From an uncultured Magnetococcales bacterium (GTDB taxonomy: Bacteria > Pseudomonadota > Alphaproteobacteria > UBA2136 > JAPKEQ01), in contig CAXHDG010000002.1 of the NCBI GenBank assembly GCA_964015495.1, positions 1,449-65,448 of the forward strand: a stretch of DNA of 64,000 bases, in the 5' to 3' direction. Numbering within the stretch: the first letter of the stretch is position 1; each line of letters begins with the position of its first letter. Positions 41,119-48,940 of this stretch are shown here, in pieces. Both the position numbers and the translations under genes were made by a program. Below the pieces are notes generated by a model. It was not told the origin of the DNA. It searched no databases and saw nothing but the letters and a program-made list of their open reading frames with translations.

Positions 41119-43296
41119 CTACTTTGTTTGGCTGATAAAAGCGCCATCCCAGTCTTTTGCGGGCGGTGTTTTTTTATAAGACTTAATGCGATCAAGAAAA
41201 AGCTCTTTAAGGGTGTTATGCACTTTAAGAGATTTATAAAGCTTTTCTGCTTTTGCCCAATCTTTGTTTTGGTAGGCTTTAAAGCCTTCTGCGGCTGCTT
41301 TCTGATCGTGAAGCTGATCCTCGCTGACAGTTTCGTCTATGCCGATGAGTTCGTACAGGGCAACAGGTTCTGTTTTTCCTTTTACTGCTACAAGATCAAG
41401 GAAAAGAAACTCTGCTTCTGGCACAACATCTTTTGTGAATGAACTGGCAATTGTAATAACGCCATATTGCTTAGATTGCCCTTCAAGGCGAGAGGCAAGG
41501 TTGACGCTATCTCCCATAACTGTGTAATCAAAGCGCTGTTTTGAACCCATGTTTCCGACGCTACACATGCCTGTGTTTATACCAATACCAACGGCAAGGT
41601 TAGGCAAACCGCGTTCGGTAAGTTCTACGTTAAGCTCTTCAAGACGAAGCTCCATATCGCGGGCGCTTTTACAGGATAAGTAAGCGTGATTTGGCGTATC
41701 CAGTGGGGCATTCCAAAAGGCCATAATAGCATCGCCCATGTACTTATCAATGGTGCCTTCGCTGTTCATAATAATCTCTGTCATGGGCGTTAGGTAATCA
41801 TTTAAAAGGCCGCTGAGCTCTTCTGGTGTAAGTTTTTCAGAAATAGAGGTAAAGCTACGAATATCACTAAAGAGAATTGTCATGTTTTTTTGCTCACCGC
41901 CAAGCTGAAGGCCATCAGAGGATTCGCTAAGTTTTGTGACAAGTTCTGGTGAAAGGTAATGAGAGAAAGCATTACGAATTTGTTTTTTAGAAGCTTCTTC
42001 ACGCGCATATTTAATAAAGTTTTGCATCATAAACATGAAAACAAGAGTTGCCGTTGGCACGGTGGCATCAATTAAGTACCCATAATTTTTAAAAGCAATA
42101 ACACTCACGGAGATACTTGTAAAAAGCATACTTACGGCAACAATACCTGCCCAAATAGATCCAAAACGGTTAACCAGAACAATAAGCAGTATACCGCTAA
42201 TAAGAGTGAAAACCGTTGGGAACATTTCTGACCACCAAGGGCGTTGCAAAAATTCTCCACTGAGGATTGTTTCAAGGGTTTGTTTGTGGATGTCTACGCC
42301 GGGAACAACAGCGTCAAGCGGTGAGGATCGTAAATCAAAAAGCCCTGGTGCAGATGTACCGAGAAAGGCGAGTCCATTATCAAAATAGCCTTCTGGTAGA
42401 CGTTTATTCATAATATCGCTTGCTGAAATGTATTGGTCTCGGCTGTAGTGTTTAAAGCGTGTCCAAATACGCCCGCCCTTGTCGACAGGAATAATAATAG
42501 GTGTTCTGCCAAGCCTAAATCCTGTGAGACCAGCATTTTCCTCAACAAAAGCAAGGTAGGATTTTTGATCCATAGCCACGCGCAGAAGTTCAATAGAAAG
42601 ACTTGGATAAGCATGTCCTTTAAATTCAATAAATGCAGGAACTGAGCGTACGATACTATCTACTTCTGGCACCATATTGAAATGAGCAAGGCCATGTGAG
42701 CTATCCTCAATTTCGGAGATATTACGCGTTACATTTTCTGCGCTAGAGAGCCATTCCCCATAACTAGAAACACCAGATAAACTGACACGCGGCATCATGT
42801 CATCATTGTTGCGGGTTTGTTCTTCAAAGTTAAAGGCTATACCAGCAACCACATTGTAGTTTTGAATGGTTTTTGCAAAAACATCATCATGCTCTGGGAG
42901 GTTTTGAATGGTGCTCTTCTCATCTTTGGAAAGAGGCCAGTTTTTGCTCACAAACTCTGGTGATGTGCGGTCGGGTTCTGCAAATACCATATCAAAAGCC
43001 ATGCCAGAGAGACCGTAGGTTTCAAAGGAGGTTTTCACCAGTTCTGCAAGTACTGTGCGCGGCCATGGCCACTGGCCAATTTCTGAAAGGCTTTTTTCAT
43101 CAATATCAATTACATAAACCGGAAACTCATTATCTGTACGTGGCCATGTTTTTTGGTATTGGTCAAAAACCTTAAGCTGAATCACCTCAATAAGGCTGAT
43201 AGATGTCATTGAAATAGCAAGGCCCGCAAGAAGAATAAGCCAAGGTAAAAATGAAACGCTGGCAGAAAAAAGCTTCTGGAAAAGCCCTTTTACCAT
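41119..43296 (-). CDS. CHASE2-domain membrane adenylate/guanylate cyclase (class III)
   Basis: 725 aa. N-terminal TM, a ~300-aa periplasmic CHASE2-like domain, three TMs, then the cyclase domain (ILFSDIRSFTSISE...KYMGDAIMAFWNAP...NTGMCSVGNMGS...DYTVMGDSVNLASRLE). Followed by a TPR-like tail. Confidence 0.85.
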   Translation of the reverse strand: MVKGLFQKLFSASVSFLPWLILLAGLAISMTSISLIEVIQLKVFDQYQKTWPRTDNEFPVYVIDIDEKSLSEIGQWPWPRTVLAELVKTSFETYGLSGMAFDMVFAEPDRTSPEFVSKNWPLSKDEKSTIQNLPEHDDVFAKTIQNYNVVAGIAFNFEEQTRNNDDMMPRVSLSGVSSYGEWLSSAENVTRNISEIEDSSHGLAHFNMVPEVDSIVRSVPAFIEFKGHAYPSLSIELLRVAMDQKSYLAFVEENAGLTGFRLGRTPIIIPVDKGGRIWTRFKHYSRDQYISASDIMNKRLPEGYFDNGLAFLGTSAPGLFDLRSSPLDAVVPGVDIHKQTLETILSGEFLQRPWWSEMFPTVFTLISGILLIVLVNRFGSIWAGIVAVSMLFTSISVSVIAFKNYGYLIDATVPTATLVFMFMMQNFIKYAREEASKKQIRNAFSHYLSPELVTKLSESSDGLQLGGEQKNMTILFSDIRSFTSISEKLTPEELSGLLNDYLTPMTEIIMNSEGTIDKYMGDAIMAFWNAPLDTPNHAYLSCKSARDMELRLEELNVELTERGLPNLAVGIGINTGMCSVGNMGSKQRFDYTVMGDSVNLASRLEGQSKQYGVITIASSFTKDVVPEAEFLFLDLVAVKGKTEPVALYELIGIDETVSEDQLHDQKAAAEGFKAYQNKDWAKAEKLYKSLKVHNTLKELFLDRIKSYKKTPPAKDWDGAFISQTK

Positions 43297-44651
43297 GAAG
43301 TACCAAACTGTTTGGTGACATTAAAGAGTACTTTTTCATTTTCATACTCATAGTTTACAAGATTACTATCAGCTTCTGCGTGCTGATAGCTTGCAGAAAC
43401 AGTCCAGTTTCCTTTGAATTTTTTACCAAAAAGAGCAGAAAGTGTGCGGGAGGTATCCGCACGCACCACTGTGGGGCTTACAAGAATATCAACGCCTTTA
43501 TATTGACTCTTTTTCATTTTCCAGCCCGCATTAAAGAACATATCAGCCGGCAAAACGCGTGTGTACGTTAAATTAAAGCTCTTTTGTATATTGTCGTTAT
43601 AGAGAGTTTGGGTGTCCTCTCTGCGATGAATGGCTGAAAAATTAAAAATATCTTTAGGCGTAGCAGCTGCAAGAACCGTAAAACCAAACTCTCTTGCTTT
43701 ACCGTCTTTGTCTTCATAGGTTGTTGTTGTGCGACTGTTGGTGAAATCTCTGTTTTCTGCCTTTGCATAAGTGCTCACCTTTATTTTAGGATGCAGAATT
43801 TTTTCAGCTGAAGTTTGCAAGCTTGTGATCTCAAGGTAATCTTGATGAGCGAGCTTAATATCGCTGTAAGCCCCTTCAAATTTAAGTTTTGCGCCATGTT
43901 TAGGAAAACTATAAGACGGACCTGTTTTGTAGTTGAATACGGTCAAATCTAAGCCATCAATAGACATTTGCTCTGTTTTGTAGAAGCTAAAAGCACTATC
44001 CCATGTGTAGCCTTTTTGGTGGTTAAAGGTGTAGGAATGGTTGACGCTGGTACTGCTGAAAATGCTTTCATCGGCGTCTTCTCCGCTGCCATTTCCAACA
44101 GGCACAATCACATCAAATACTGAAACTGTACCACTGTTAGGCGCAGCAGATGCGTTTGAGTCTGAAGCATAGCCAAAAGAAAGAGAGCCTGTAAGTTTAT
44201 GACGCTTCCTAGCGGCGCCAATGCGTGTAAGCATGGCATTTACATTTTTCTGAACAGCTTCTGGCGGGCCCCCTTCTAAAACTTCGTTAAAGAGCTTTTC
44301 TGCACGTGTGAAATCTTTCATGTGCATATAGGTAAGGGCAAGATCAAGCTTTACGCGTGGTAGGTCTGGCTTATGGATAAGCATGCGTTCGTAGGCTGAA
44401 ACAGCTTCGTCTAGCAGCCCCATTTTTTTTGCAAGAGAGGCATATTCAAAATTAAGTTTTAAGTTTGAGGGGTCTTGTGCAATTTTTTGTAACAAAGCAT
44501 CAAGATGCTCTGCAGGAGAGATTTTCTTTTGCTCTGATTCAGTTTGCGGTTGTTGCTTTGGTTTTTCTTCCTGTGTAAAAGCTACCGTGCCCATAAGGCA
44601 CAGAGTCGAAACTATAAATGTGAGAGCGAGCTTTTGCCTCAAGAGGACCAT
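43290..44651 (-). CDS. TPR-containing outer-membrane beta-barrel protein (DUF560/Slam-like architecture)
   Basis: 453 aa. Signal peptide. N-terminal TPR repeats (EAVSAYERMLIHKPDLPRVKLDLALTYMHMKDFTRAEKLF). The C-terminal half has alternating beta-strand patterns and ends ...KQFGTSW (aromatic terminal residue). Confidence 0.45.
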   Translation of the reverse strand: MVLLRQKLALTFIVSTLCLMGTVAFTQEEKPKQQPQTESEQKKISPAEHLDALLQKIAQDPSNLKLNFEYASLAKKMGLLDEAVSAYERMLIHKPDLPRVKLDLALTYMHMKDFTRAEKLFNEVLEGGPPEAVQKNVNAMLTRIGAARKRHKLTGSLSFGYASDSNASAAPNSGTVSVFDVIVPVGNGSGEDADESIFSSTSVNHSYTFNHQKGYTWDSAFSFYKTEQMSIDGLDLTVFNYKTGPSYSFPKHGAKLKFEGAYSDIKLAHQDYLEITSLQTSAEKILHPKIKVSTYAKAENRDFTNSRTTTTYEDKDGKAREFGFTVLAAATPKDIFNFSAIHRREDTQTLYNDNIQKSFNLTYTRVLPADMFFNAGWKMKKSQYKGVDILVSPTVVRADTSRTLSALFGKKFKGNWTVSASYQHAEADSNLVNYEYENEKVLFNVTKQFGTSW

Positions 44652-45277
44652 TGATCACTATCATCCTTCATTGCTTCTTCAAGTGATTCTTCCCCAGAAT
44701 TCTTACGCAATCTCTCAATTTCATGGATAAGATCAATGCGCTCAACCATGGCACCAATAATGGTTGAAAGGCTTTCCATGTCTTCTTGGTGCTGAAGTGT
44801 AAAGGGGTGATAGATAGGCTTTCCGTCATCACCAACGCCGTCAATATGGTTAATAAGTTGAACAACGCCAATAACACGGCCATAAAAGTTTTTAAGCGGG
44901 AAAGCCAGCATGCTCATGGAACGGTAGTGGGTTTTATCATCAAATGAGCGGTTAAATGTAAAGGGGACACCGCCAGGAATATCATATAGATCGTCAATTA
45001 AAACAGATTCACCTGTTTGGGCAACGTAACCAGCAATTGATTTAAGATCAATGGGCATAGCGAAGTTTTGAGGATCAAGTTGTAGGGAATCATTTTGCAT
45101 TGTCATCGCTTGAAGTGTTTCAGGCTCTCCATCGTATGGGCGTACAATGAAGGTACTTCCAGCTTCTGAAAACGTATGACGCCTTGCCTTTGCAAGGATA
45201 AGATCCATAGCTTGAGTTGGTGTTAGCCTTCCAGCATTGTGCTGGAGGACTGCAATAAAATCATCAGCAATACTCAT
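44639..45277 (-). CDS. GAF domain protein
   Basis: 212 aa. GAF-like core (...FIVRPYDGEP...IAGYVAQTGESVLIDDLYDIPGG...). Cytoplasmic. Confidence 0.6.
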   Translation of the reverse strand: MSIADDFIAVLQHNAGRLTPTQAMDLILAKARRHTFSEAGSTFIVRPYDGEPETLQAMTMQNDSLQLDPQNFAMPIDLKSIAGYVAQTGESVLIDDLYDIPGGVPFTFNRSFDDKTHYRSMSMLAFPLKNFYGRVIGVVQLINHIDGVGDDGKPIYHPFTLQHQEDMESLSTIIGAMVERIDLIHEIERLRKNSGEESLEEAMKDDSDQWSS

Positions 45278-45380: not shown

Positions 45381-47153
45381 CTATAACGGCCAGATGAGTG
45401 GCAAGAAAACCATAGCGAGAATAAAGAATATGATGTTAAGTGGAAGCCCCACCTTAAGGAAATCTATATATTTATAACCGCCAGGGCCATAAACCATTGT
45501 ATTTGTCTGATATCCGACAGGTGTTGCAAAACATGTGGATGCGGCAAAGGTTACAGCAATAAGAAATGGTTTAGGGTCTGCGCCAAAGGAATTAGCAACT
45601 TGCAAGGCAAGTGGGGCAATAAGAACAGCGGTCGCATTGTTAGACATAACAGCTGTAAGCACCATGGTGAGGATATAGATGCCGCCAAGCCCATAAATAG
45701 GGCCATAACTCCCAAGAGAAGCCATAACAATATCTACAAGAGAAGACACAGCTCCAGAGCTTTCCATGGCAGCGCCAAGTGGGATAAGCCCTGCAAGGAG
45801 AAGGATAACGCGAAGGTCTACAGCGTTATAAATTTCTTTTGCGGTAAGGCATCTTGTAAAGCCAACAGCAAGTGCCCCGCAAAGCGCGGCTGTAAGGATA
45901 GATACTGTTCCAATAGCTGCTGCCCCAACCACAGAGGCAAGAATAACAACAGAAAGGAAAGCCTTACTTGTTTTAAGCTTAAGAGTTGATAGGTCTTGCA
46001 GGTATGCAAATTCAGCATCATCTGCAAGGTGTAATAGGTCATTTTTATGCCCTTGCACAAGGAGAGTATCCCCCTCCTTAAAGGTAATATCACGAATACG
46101 TGTTTTAATAACGGAGCCACGGCGGCGCACACCAAGAACAGCAGCGTGATAACGCCAGTAGAAATCAAGTTGTGTAAGTGTTCTGCCTACAATGGGTGAA
46201 CCTGTGGGTACAATAACCTCAAGCAGACTAATATCATCAGATTCAAGGTGTGAGGCATTCAGGTGTCCTTTAGCCCAATCTTCAAGTTTAAGACGGCTTT
46301 CAGATTCTAATATGCGGTCAACATCTCCGCGGATAACAAGCAAATCCCCTTCATGGATGGTGCTGTTGTGCGCAGCCCAAACAACTTTACCATCGCGCAC
46401 CATTTCAATGATGCGGCCGCCAATCTCAGTGAGGGCATTATCTTGCCCGCGCTGTCCAATAAGAGGGGACCCTTTAAGAACGCGCATCTCTGTCATGTAA
46501 TCTTGCAGGCGGTAATCTTCAGAAAGGCTTTCAGTTTGTTCACGGTCTTTAAGCATGTATTTAGAAGCAAAAAGCATATAAACAATACCAACGGCAAAGC
46601 AAATAAGGCCAAATTTGGCAAATTCAAACATGCCAAAAGGTTCAAGTCCTGCACCGATAAGGAAAAGGTTCATAAGAAGATTGGTTGTTGTGCCAATAAG
46701 GGTACATACCCCGCCAAATTGCGCAGCAAATGAAAGCGGCATTAAAATACGGCTTGGACTAATGCCGCGTTCGTCTGAAAAGCGCATAGCAAGAGGCAAA
46801 AGAACAGCAACCGTAGCCGTATTGTTAATAAAGGCGCTTAAAGTACCGCAAGTTGCCATAAGAACAAGGTTAAGCCGTGTTTTACTTTTTCCAGCTACCG
46901 TATAAATTTTATTGGCAAGAAAGCGCACAACGCCTGTTCTTTGCAAGGCTGCTGACAAAATAAACATGCCAGCTACAGTAATTGTAGCAGGGTTAGAAAA
47001 CCCATTCAGAATCATATCTTCTTCTACAAGGCCAGTAAGGAGAAGGGCAACAAGAACCATCATGGCGACCATATCAACCGGAAATTTTTCGCTGACAAAG
47101 AGGATGATTGATCCAGCAACAATGAGTAGAACTGTTAGGATTTGGAAGTCCAT
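45381..47153 (-). CDS. SLC13/DASS-family anion permease with two central TrkA-C (RCK_C) domains
   Basis: 590 aa. N- and C-terminal transporter repeats (SNPATITVAGMFILSAAL... / ...MSNNATAVLIAPLAL). A central cytoplasmic region holds two RCK_C-like units (LKGSPLIGQ..., IVPTGSPIVGRTL). Confidence 0.75.
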   Translation of the reverse strand: MDFQILTVLLIVAGSIILFVSEKFPVDMVAMMVLVALLLTGLVEEDMILNGFSNPATITVAGMFILSAALQRTGVVRFLANKIYTVAGKSKTRLNLVLMATCGTLSAFINNTATVAVLLPLAMRFSDERGISPSRILMPLSFAAQFGGVCTLIGTTTNLLMNLFLIGAGLEPFGMFEFAKFGLICFAVGIVYMLFASKYMLKDREQTESLSEDYRLQDYMTEMRVLKGSPLIGQRGQDNALTEIGGRIIEMVRDGKVVWAAHNSTIHEGDLLVIRGDVDRILESESRLKLEDWAKGHLNASHLESDDISLLEVIVPTGSPIVGRTLTQLDFYWRYHAAVLGVRRRGSVIKTRIRDITFKEGDTLLVQGHKNDLLHLADDAEFAYLQDLSTLKLKTSKAFLSVVILASVVGAAAIGTVSILTAALCGALAVGFTRCLTAKEIYNAVDLRVILLLAGLIPLGAAMESSGAVSSLVDIVMASLGSYGPIYGLGGIYILTMVLTAVMSNNATAVLIAPLALQVANSFGADPKPFLIAVTFAASTCFATPVGYQTNTMVYGPGGYKYIDFLKVGLPLNIIFFILAMVFLPLIWPL

Positions 47154-47207
47154 TTTTTGTGCGATCCTTTTTTGTGGTCTTGCAACTGTGTAAAATACAC
47201 GTATTCT

Positions 47208-47747
47208 ATGGGCATGACAAATAAAGCTTCACGTACTCCAAACCATGTCCGCTTTAATAAGCACGCCGCACCTGTGCCTAAAAAGCGTAAAAAAGCAGCT
47301 AAAAAAGAAGAAGTTCTTTCACCGTATGTTTCAGATTTAAGTAAAACGCCAAGCCTAAAAAGGGCAGATAAGCTTAGGTTTAGAAAAACAATTTGGGTTT
47401 TTGCGGTTATTTTTATTTTGGCAGGGCTTGATCAATTGATGCCTTCTGTTCGTAAAACATTTGAATCCATTGTTTCTGAGTCTCCAGAGTTTATGCCAGA
47501 GGTTTCGGGCCTTGTGCAAAAGGCAGAAAATCTGCTGAAAAACTTAAACACAAAGCCAACAGCTATCCTTCTTATGGATACTGTGGGCTACGATATACCT
47601 AGCCATTTAGAAGACCCGTCTATTCATCTTGTATCAGGTATGGACCTTGAGATTGTTGAACTTAAAGGGCAGTGGGCTCAGGTTTCTTCACCTTCGGTAG
47701 ATTTTATGTTCTGGGTTGATAAAAATACACTTCTTCTCGAAAAATAG
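47208..47747 (+). CDS. Hypothetical membrane-anchored protein (start uncertain). The 47142 start given in the ORF track overlaps the transporter gene.
   Basis: Basic N-terminus, one TM (IWVFAVIFILAGL). C-terminal ...LEIVELKGQWAQVSS resembles a bacterial SH3-like segment. Confidence 0.35.
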   Translation: MGMTNKASRTPNHVRFNKHAAPVPKKRKKAAKKEEVLSPYVSDLSKTPSLKRADKLRFRKTIWVFAVIFILAGLDQLMPSVRKTFESIVSESPEFMPEVSGLVQKAENLLKNLNTKPTAILLMDTVGYDIPSHLEDPSIHLVSGMDLEIVELKGQWAQVSSPSVDFMFWVDKNTLLLEK

Positions 47748-47826
47748 AGCGTTTTTAGTCGCGTTTCATGCTGTGAATTAAAAATGTTTATTTGCAGAAA
47801 CGAAAACCTTTGCTACAGTAGGCGCC

Positions 47827-48126
47827 ATGGAAATTAAACATAACATGGCACCAGACACCCCAGTCCCTTTCAAGTTTCAGATTGATGCGGCTCAAAAAGT
47901 GGTACGTCTTTTTCTTCCGCCAATGCCAGGCAGACCTTCACCATACCTTAGAATTGGCCGCGATTTTGTGCGCATTTCTACAGGCGGAGAACACGGCTTT
48001 TTGCAGCTTTCTCCTGTTGAAGATGATGTGATTTCAACACTTCTAAATTACGGCACTGTGGATGTACACGAGACGACAACAGAAGGCCAAATTACACGCT
48101 CTTACCGGGCCGAAGTTGTGCGCTAA
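47827..48126 (+). CDS. Hypothetical protein (99 aa)
   Basis: ORF only. No motif recognised. Confidence 0.3.
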   Translation: MEIKHNMAPDTPVPFKFQIDAAQKVVRLFLPPMPGRPSPYLRIGRDFVRISTGGEHGFLQLSPVEDDVISTLLNYGTVDVHETTTEGQITRSYRAEVVR

Positions 48127-48130
48127 ACGC

Positions 48131-48940
48131 ATGATGTTTCGTGCTTATATATTCACTCTTTTTCTCCTAACGTCTTTAAATGCGTTTTCTTGGGCAGCAC
48201 CAACCGTTAATGTAAAAGAGGCCGATGCATCTTTTCCTTTTTCTTGCCTGGGGCGTACTTTTGAAAGCGATACGCCTATTAGTAATGTGCATGGGTGTGA
48301 TAAAACTTTTATAGCCTTTAGCACAGTGGGCAAGGCCATGTTACTTACTGTGCACCACGGGTGGATGGATACAGGTGAAAGTAAAACGCCGTACGTAAGC
48401 CATTTTTTAGAACTTCCTGATGGCCGTTTTTATCGTTTCAATGATATTGGATTTCTTTTCCATCCACGCCTTCGTCAATATTTTGATGAAATTTCAGGGC
48501 GTGTTGGTGGCTACAAGACAAATATCACACTAGAAAAATTTGCAGAGCCGCATCTTGATGCTTATGCGGATACATTTTGCCTGACTTACCATCTTAAGCA
48601 TCCGTTTGGCGGCAAATATGGATGGTGTCAAAAAGATACCATTATGAGCGGGCAAGGTTTTTACCTTGATGGCGCTATGGAATTTACGCGCGCCGCGTTG
48701 CTGGCTTATGACGCAACAATTGAACATAATATTGCTATGTCTCGCGGGCCTTTTCTTTCTAACGTAACGCTTACAGCAATTAACACAGATATAAACGGCT
48801 GGTGGTATTACGCCTTTGCCTTTGTAGGTGTTGCAAGCCCTTACGAGCCAGAACAGTATTTTGTTGTGAGGGTTTTCTTTGATGGACGAACAGAGATTCG
48901 CACGCTGAGAGAAAAACCTGAAAATCCTGACGCATTATAA
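48131..48940 (+). CDS. Hypothetical secreted protein. Start moved from 48062 to the internal MMFRAY Met.
   Basis: Signal peptide MMFRAYIFTLFLLTSLNAFSWA/AP. The 48062 start would overlap the previous ORF by 65 nt. Confidence 0.4.
   Translation: MMFRAYIFTLFLLTSLNAFSWAAPTVNVKEADASFPFSCLGRTFESDTPISNVHGCDKTFIAFSTVGKAMLLTVHHGWMDTGESKTPYVSHFLELPDGRFYRFNDIGFLFHPRLRQYFDEISGRVGGYKTNITLEKFAEPHLDAYADTFCLTYHLKHPFGGKYGWCQKDTIMSGQGFYLDGAMEFTRAALLAYDATIEHNIAMSRGPFLSNVTLTAINTDINGWWYYAFAFVGVASPYEPEQYFVVRVFFDGRTEIRTLREKPENPDAL

Follow-up and report, generated by a model that had tools for sequence, protein, structure and literature searches.

Signal perception by the cyclase CyaK of Sinorhizobium meliloti requires NsrA (PMC7529298, PMC13001267), which is fixed in the outer membrane and has been characterised in this role (PMC7529298). 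Proteins with a FecR domain accompany CHASE2 sensors in other bacteria as well. In Burkholderia, LysM-FecR proteins pair with CHASE2 histidine kinases in an operon (PMC5192318), and Campylobacterota possess a gene cluster for a CHASE2 cyclase, a phosphodiesterase (PDE), a FecR protein and a TPR protein (PMC9239204). The outer-membrane proteins (OMPs) of the Slam family, or type XI secretion system (T11SS), are defined by an N-terminal TPR domain followed by a predicted 14-strand DUF560 barrel (PMC5449769). The locus analysed here joins the two fields, i.e., CHASE2 sensing through outer-membrane proteins such as NsrA and the marine T11SS. It lies within 64,000 nucleotides of DNA from an uncultured Magnetococcales bacterium (contig CAXHDG010000002.1; the whole stretch is hereafter called the window, and coordinates refer to it unless another locus is named) and comprises three genes for a GAF protein, a Slam/T11SS-family OMP and a CHASE2 adenylate cyclase. 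In our favoured interpretation, to which we give somewhat better than even credence, these genes are the reduced form of a four-part alphaproteobacterial signalling module consisting of a GAF protein, a T11SS/Slam OMP, a FecR-domain cargo and a CHASE2 cyclase. The cargo of the window organism would be supplied from outside the 64 kb, and a cyclic AMP (cAMP) relay would run via this cargo.

Three overlapping genes on the minus strand

The three open reading frames (ORFs) are intact and all lie on the minus strand, with the GAF protein gene at 44639-45277 (212 aa), the OMP gene at 43290-44651 (453 aa) and the cyclase gene at 41119-43296 (725 aa). An initial annotation of this DNA had described the genes as overlapping by 13 and 7 nt, and the ORF coordinates bear this out exactly. 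The stop of the GAF gene and the start of the OMP gene share 13 nt (44639-44651, ATGGTCCTCTTGA), while the stop of the OMP gene and the start of the cyclase gene share the 7 nt ATGGTAA (43290-43296), which we read as the scar of a deleted cargo gene (see below). All three domain assignments of that annotation (GAF, TPR plus DUF560, and CHASE2 plus cyclase) were recovered by Pfam. Comparison with the relative whose OMP is 95% identical (locus L004) showed purifying selection on all three genes, with dN/dS values of 0.02-0.07 (0.023 for the GAF protein, 0.074 for the OMP and 0.023 for the cyclase).

The OMP matches Pfam SlipAM/DUF560 (PF04575) with 31.9 bits (cut-off 22) over model positions 4-288 of 288, and TPR_19 with 38.1 bits; TPR_Slam scored 29.4 bits, which is under its cut-off of 35.2. 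The protein starts with a signal peptide, as judged from its hydrophobic N-terminus, continues with a TPR region (residues ~46-148) and a DUF560 barrel (~151-453), and ends in a tryptophan, in agreement with the Slam-like layout proposed initially. The β-barrel expected of this middle ORF was also predicted by AlphaFold2, whose model (predicted local distance difference test, pLDDT, of 80) consists of six helices in the TPR region (46-148) and 14 long β-strands (151-452). A Foldseek search with this model retrieved the TPR-plus-barrel proteins BcsC, PgaA and PelBC, the best barrel-only matches being the 14-strand CymA, OmpG and FadL; no solved Slam structure was among the PDB matches. Having a TPR domain and, in the model, a 14-strand DUF560 barrel, the window OMP fits the published definition (PMC5449769), and its domains assign it to the Slam/T11SS family. 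A further feature of Slam/T11SS loci, an adjacent cargo with a TbpB-type barrel, was not found in the window. NCBI names the 95%-identical protein ‘surface lipoprotein assembly modifier’, and an exhaustive profile search placed 764 cluster representatives in the OMP subfamily at E<=1e-30.

The cyclase yielded Pfam matches to CHASE2 (164 bits) and Guanylate_cyc (77 bits). According to a scan for transmembrane (TM) segments, a single N-terminal one (~21-39) precedes the periplasmic CHASE2 domain, and a TM cluster (~357-402) separates the latter from the class III catalytic domain (~469-643). The expected catalytic residues are all in place, namely D478 and D522 for metal coordination, K518 and T592 for substrate specificity, and N599 and R603 for the transition state. 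In the alignment, K518 and T592 correspond to the Lys/Thr pair of the adenylate cyclases CyaB (3r5g) and CyaC (1wc1); Glu/Gly is found in the guanylate cyclase Cya2 (2w01). The specificity residues, which were to distinguish between cAMP and cGMP as the product, are thus of the adenylate type. Judging from this Lys/Thr pair, the enzyme is predicted to be an ATP-specific class IIIb cyclase with cAMP as its product.

The GAF protein (Pfam GAF, 32.6 bits; cut-off 22.4) is a stand-alone domain with a long C-terminal helix and an acidic tail, in which we found no signal peptide, TM segment or other hydrophobic segment. A profile of 10 orthologues searched against the PDB retrieved PDE5 (6e-19) and Anabaena CyaB2 (1ykd, 1e-18), followed by PDE2A, PDE10A, PDE6 and Lcd1. 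All but one of its 22 matches are GAF-containing phosphodiesterases or cyclases of cyclic nucleotide monophosphates (cNMPs) or a GAF-HD-GYP enzyme. The AlphaFold2 model (pLDDT of 90) gave a consistent picture, with an HD-GYP GAF (4mcw), PDE2/5/6/10, CyaB2 and cAMP-bound Lcd1 at the top of the Foldseek results, the top ~39 of which are all cNMP-type GAF proteins or of the GAF-HD-GYP kind. GAF domains that bind cNMPs are characterised by an NKFDE motif. The corresponding positions of the window protein read N143-H144 ... F159 ... E165-D166, the Lys being replaced by His. Within the alignment of the 10 orthologues (A3), the N, H and F never vary, and N143 and F159 are also invariant in a 30-sequence alignment (A6). 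Conservation includes the N...F part of the motif in addition to the GAF core FN..FD..(T)GY..S.L..P. The stand-alone form of ~200 aa constitutes a family of ~55 clusters, whose nearest multi-domain relatives are GAF-HD-GYP proteins. Profile and fold comparisons thus agree with the initial assignment to the cNMP-binding type of GAF domain, with cAMP or cGMP as the putative ligand.

FecR-domain proteins in related loci

About 20 independent loci were assembled from genome and metagenome scans and contig look-ups and annotated by profile hidden Markov models (HMMs); a metagenome scan for further OMP loci found only 7. The window itself matches a metagenome scaffold without any difference, and its relatives are metagenome-assembled genomes of uncultured marine Alphaproteobacteria. 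The OMP gene adjoins a CHASE2 cyclase gene in every related locus with enough flanking sequence, and synteny of all three genes is found in many of them. Because of this adjacency and the purifying selection on all three genes, the arrangement is not due to chance. T11SS OMPs of marine bacteria are often encoded without a cargo gene nearby and together with metabolic genes (PMC12282271), which would be in line with an ordinary T11SS OMP that serves an unrelated cargo and is linked to the cyclase by co-expression or shared ancestry only. We consider such a mere neighbourhood very improbable, since the adjacency of OMP and cyclase outlasts rearrangements and inversions with changed gene order or strand (L012-L014, L036, L037) as well as divergence to 30% identity. 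Moreover, the window genes overlap at their start and stop codons, and the cargo co-linked in the relatives bears a FecR domain, a known type of CHASE2 partner.

This cargo is encoded by an extra gene of 2.7-3.2 kb, which stands beside the OMP and cyclase genes in all loci outside the window clade (about 14, with OMPs 30-42% identical to that of the window) and between the two in GAF-bearing loci. A FecR/TbpB-barrel gene is adjacent in L005-L014, L021, L022, L033, L034 and L036. The product of 886-1055 aa, which databases name only ‘FecR domain-containing protein’, consists of a type I signal peptide without lipobox, a FecR domain (Pfam, 1e-8 to 1e-9), a linker, a variable middle and a C-terminal TbpB-type barrel. 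In all cargos, the linker starts at about residue 200, spans 40-240 residues and is of low complexity and poor in hydrophobic residues. The C-termini of eight out of nine members matched PF01298 at E<=0.1 (best, 2.6e-9), and a profile of the barrel matched the solved structures of TbpB (4.8e-10), NHBA/GNA2132, LbpB, a haemophore and fHbp. As these structural matches are known Slam/T11SS substrates, the protein carries the hallmarks of a non-lipidated T11SS cargo.

Directly before the barrel, a CxxC-x4-WGxW motif is invariant in all adjacent cargos and in the unlinked paralogues described below (alignments A2, A4 and A5; residues 743-754 of the L005 cargo); it may form a disulfide, bind a metal or serve in recognition. 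In the divergent, Rickettsiales-labelled loci L013 (87-503) and L014 (2235-2612), an extra small TPR-only ORF that resembles the N-domain of the OMP lies upstream of the cargo gene. The locus L015 (SMNH02000020.1, ‘Kordia sp. TARA_039_SRF’) equals L009 (UBA2136) coordinate for coordinate across the GAF-OMP-cargo-cyclase region, as judged by tblastn and BLASTP; filed under a Bacteroidota genus, it is probably a mis-binned or contaminating contig.

In the window and its closest relatives, the OMP gene runs directly into the cyclase gene. These relatives are L004 (95% OMP identity), L018, L028 and L029 (75%), and L016 and L017 (65%). The ATGGTAA junction is identical in L004 and L016, and the gene tables of L028 and L029 give the same 7-nt overlap. 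The absence of an adjacent cargo, already remarked upon in the initial annotation, extends to the entire window: searches with two cargos (tblastn) and with profiles of the N- and C-terminal parts of the cargo (six-frame hmmsearch) returned nothing below E 0.5 and gave no sign even of a hidden or degraded cargo or FecR gene within the 64 kb. In a neighbour-joining tree of the cyclases, the cargo-less clade is monophyletic (100/100), forms the sister group of the cargo-bearing loci L005, L021 and L022 (91/100), and is nested within a clade that bears both cargo and GAF genes. Because the clade is monophyletic and nested among cargo-bearing loci, a single deletion of the adjacent cargo gene is the parsimonious history. 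In the cargo-less clade, the OMP sequences finish with four extra residues, GTSW, SHSW or GTTW (43290-43301 in the window; alignment A1), where the C-terminus in cargo-bearing relatives reads ...W[RK][YF]. The last residue of the C-terminus thus created by the deletion is still aromatic. A decaying relic left behind after cargo loss is ruled out by the dN/dS of 0.074 and by ORFs that are intact across the clade. The window is a reduced member of a conserved module family, and its remaining OMP is not decaying.

A second class of paralogue, unlinked to the operon, combines a FecR domain and FG-GAP repeats with the same C-terminal domain in 866-1700 aa. It occupies a conserved locus of its own (fadA, fadB, acyl-CoA dehydrogenase, the FecR protein, Q_salvage ... 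rpmH, rnpA, yidC). Its C-terminus is homologous to the barrel of the adjacent cargo (hhalign probability 100%, E 7e-43) and matches NHBA at E 0.003, and both cargo profile HMMs match all of these orphan proteins. Contig JAYKCG010000001.1 (1,262,185 bp; OMP 75% identical) carries a cargo-less CitMHS-GAF-OMP-cyclase operon at 40-54 kb and, ~356 kb from it, a FecR/FG-GAP/TbpB-barrel paralogue (P0067, ~404-407 kb). Assembly GCA_035092205.1 likewise contains both L018 and the paralogue P0033, and the run series of L016 and L017 (65% OMP identity) also yields P0038. Since cargo-less relatives have kept the unlinked paralogue, the window clade appears to have retained one of its two cargos and lost the other. 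The unlinked paralogue is apparently also present in genomes whose cargo gene is adjacent (pairs P0021 and P0027, P0022 and P0028). P0021 and P0027, which apparently stem from one genome (its operon being seen in L033), are 91.6% identical over the first ~203 residues comprising the signal peptide and FecR domain, and only ~31% identical in their C-terminal barrels; the N-termini of P0022 and P0028 are only ~51% identical. The high value of the first pair may reflect gene conversion affecting the FecR module in a single lineage. We dropped an argument for a shared partner based on same-genome paralogues, given 92% FecR identity in one genome and ~51% in the second pair.

With these data at hand, we considered whether the window operon might signal without any cargo, i.e., whether the Slam-like OMP is itself the surface receptor, its TPR domain contacts CHASE2 and the FecR protein has become dispensable in the window clade. 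The overlap of the OMP and cyclase genes with no cargo between them, stable over a clade of 65-95% OMP identity, would fit such a direct relay. The same holds for the purifying selection on the OMP, whose TPR domain is its best-conserved part (40-50% identity to cargo-bearing homologues vs. 31-37% for the barrel), and for NsrA, which likewise has TPR repeats and a barrel. However, all other lineages keep the FecR cargo beside the OMP, the clade itself keeps an unlinked FecR/TbpB-barrel paralogue, and the domain found repeatedly alongside CHASE2 in unrelated systems is FecR, not TPR (PMC5192318, PMC9239204; Ensifer locus L020, see below). Moreover, no DUF560 protein is known as a receptor, and we regard a direct relay as unlikely.

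The initial annotation had suggested that the three genes would make up a complete envelope-to-second-messenger relay, which is supported in part. Its core, the connection from the outer membrane to CHASE2, has a functional precedent in NsrA-CyaK. The claim of completeness fared less well: a direct three-gene relay is less likely than a cargo from another locus, given the FecR cargo of the relatives, the FecR-CHASE2 precedents, the derived deletion and the unlinked paralogue. By its sequence features in the relatives, the missing component is likely a FecR-domain cargo with a TbpB-type barrel and not a lipoprotein.

A putative cargo-dependent cAMP relay

In the cargo-dependent relay that we favour, the OMP would recognise the C-terminal barrel of the cargo through its periplasmic TPR domain and thread or display the C-terminal part of the cargo at the cell surface. 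At the other end of the cargo, the FecR domain would reach and engage the periplasmic CHASE2 domain on its flexible linker of 40-240 residues. Events at the surface could thereby alter the cyclase's production of cAMP, which the GAF protein would read. For the window organism, a gene outside the 64-kb window would supply the cargo. We infer the contact between FecR and CHASE2 by analogy with NsrA-CyaK, the pairs of Burkholderia and Campylobacterota and an Ensifer plasmid (L020, 6779-7752), where a 104-aa TPR protein and a 220-aa FecR protein are encoded divergently from a CHASE2 cyclase and a metallo-β-lactamase-fold hydrolase. These Ensifer genes adjoin an NHLP bacteriocin exporter and a cNMP-binding protein.

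Several points weigh against this reading. The window has no cargo of its own, and the unlinked paralogue is seen only in relatives with 75% OMP identity and, for the 65% relative, in the same run series. The TbpB_B_D Pfam scores of these orphan paralogues fall under the curated cut-off. The GAF gene is absent from the divergent loci L012-L014 and L036 and hence is not a universal part of the module. Furthermore, the motif of the GAF protein reads NH, not NK, and its nearest multi-domain relatives are GAF-HD-GYP enzymes with no established ligand. The interactions between TPR domain and cargo, FecR and CHASE2, and GAF protein and cAMP are all putative. The main difficulty is one of topology: known T11SS cargos leave the periplasm completely and end up at the surface or in the medium (PMC8406197, PMC5449769), which would place the FecR domain outside the cell and away from CHASE2. 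Consequently, either the FecR domain is retained in the periplasm as a tether, or export itself is regulatory.

If export were regulatory, the FecR cargo would be a periplasmic regulator of CHASE2 that the T11SS OMP exports whole, and cAMP would report secretion activity or cargo occupancy in an FlgM-like manner, without any tether. Characterised T11SS cargos are indeed fully surface-exposed or released (PMC8406197, PMC5449769), and the type I signal peptide without lipobox resembles that of soluble, haemophilin-type cargos. The tight linkage of OMP, cargo and cyclase would also suit such a mechanism. However, the large variable middle of the cargo and the FG-GAP repeats of the paralogues suggest a ligand-binding surface domain rather than a plug, and NsrA as the only characterised analogue is fixed in the outer membrane (PMC7529298). 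Secretion as the signal thus seems quite improbable to us, and we retain the tethered cargo as the preferred reading.

This tethered reading can be sharpened into a more specific one, which we put forward tentatively and hold to be rather doubtful in its full extent. Here, a T11SS porin would have been recruited as one half of a two-protein trans-envelope receptor. The cargo would be lodged in or through the DUF560 barrel with its variable sensor region exposed at the surface, the periplasmic FecR domain would gate the CHASE2 cyclase, and the GAF protein would serve as the cAMP effector. The unlinked paralogues might plug into the same OMP and cyclase, and the three-gene form would be a ‘socket’ for an exchangeable sensor.

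Neighbouring genes and relation to known systems

Upstream of the GAF gene, at a distance of 103 nt, lies the gene of an anion transporter (45381-47153, minus strand), which Pfam identifies as of the CitMHS/Na-sulfate-symporter type with two TrkA_C domains. Its synteny with the GAF gene is kept in most GAF-bearing relatives (L005-L007, L009, L011, L016, L021, L022, L028), and the transporter gene is not in that position in L008, L010 or the divergent loci. It possibly belongs to the same transcription unit as the GAF, OMP and cyclase genes, its membership being uncertain. A functional tie between the GAF protein or cAMP and the CitMHS/TrkA_C transporter is a possible candidate. Three ORFs of 201, 99 and 292 aa (47142-48940, plus strand), for which no Pfam match is on record, are divergent from the transporter gene, a position kept in L016 and L028. 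On the other side, phoH follows 202 nt downstream of the cyclase gene. A strong hairpin resembling an intrinsic terminator (13 pairs and a T-run; 39870-39841, minus strand) is located after phoH; it was the only strong site in our terminator search, which found no comparable one in the interval from the cyclase gene to phoH. In L016 and L028, these two genes are separated by a miaB-like gene.

Marine and environmental T11SS are largely without known cargo or function. The family described here comprises natural variants with the cargo adjacent or unlinked and with the GAF gene present or absent. It offers hypotheses on FecR-CHASE2 docking, on a signalling role of T11SS and, for marine alphaproteobacteria with small genomes, on a cAMP effector that is not of the CRP type. 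As a reduced variant, the window is mainly of value as a pointer to this family.

The closest characterised functional analogue is the plant-signal cAMP cascade of NsrA-CyaK (and CyaD1/D2). As read from the pSymB sequence, NsrA is a protein of 1219 aa comprising FecR, TPR and barrel, and nsrA overlaps or shares a boundary with cyaK; CyaK has the same CHASE2-cyclase architecture as the window cyclase and is 30% identical to it. Both systems thus place the gene of an outer-membrane β-barrel immediately upstream of, and overlapping with, that of a CHASE2 class III cyclase (by 7 nt in the window). At the system level, they share the domain set of FecR, TPR, outer-membrane barrel, CHASE2 and cyclase, the FecR part lying outside the window locus. 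In contrast to the window system, NsrA is a single FecR-TPR-barrel polypeptide without a Pfam DUF560 match, whereas in the window family these roles fall to two proteins, the DUF560 OMP and the FecR cargo that ends in a TbpB-type barrel; the window locus has no FecR gene, and its OMP no FecR domain. We reject membership of the window OMP in the NsrA family, as BLASTP gave nothing better than E=6 and hhalign aligned only the TPR repeats at 14% probability. The read-out differs as well, with the CRP-type regulator Clr in S. meliloti and the stand-alone GAF protein as the candidate in the window.

Like the Slam/T11SS systems (Neisseria Slam1-TbpB/fHbp; Xenorhabdus HrpB-haemophilin and NilB-NilC), the window OMP combines a TPR domain with a 14-strand DUF560 barrel, and the partner encoded beside the OMP in the relatives ends in a TbpB-type eight-stranded barrel (PMC5449769, PMC8406197). 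Unlike the known examples, this cargo has an N-terminal FecR domain and is not a lipoprotein, the genetic neighbours are a cyclase and a GAF protein instead of TonB-dependent receptors or metal-uptake functions, and the cargo is not adjacent in the window. The terms FecR, cyclase and CHASE2 have 0 occurrences in the main texts of the T11SS surveys PMC12282271, PMC8406197 and PMC5449769. Full-text literature searches, with subscription literature outside their scope, brought up no publication that treats DUF560 together with CHASE2, FecR or adenylate cyclase.

The FecR/CHASE2 pairs of Burkholderia and Campylobacterota share with the window family a secreted FecR-domain protein, often together with a TPR protein, that is genomically coupled to a CHASE2 sensor. 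They differ from it in having neither a DUF560 barrel nor a TbpB-type barrel on the FecR protein, and in their outputs and accessory genes, i.e., a histidine kinase and a phosphodiesterase, respectively. Finally, the GAF domains of PDE2/5/6/10, Anabaena CyaB2 and Leptospira Lcd1 are the best profile and fold matches of the window GAF protein, which differs from them as a stand-alone single domain with a C-terminal helix, not a regulatory module fused to an enzyme, and with NH in place of NK. Taken together, the kinds of components are already known; new are a T11SS-type OMP in a CHASE2/cAMP module, the FecR-headed cargo architecture and a stand-alone GAF protein of the cNMP type.

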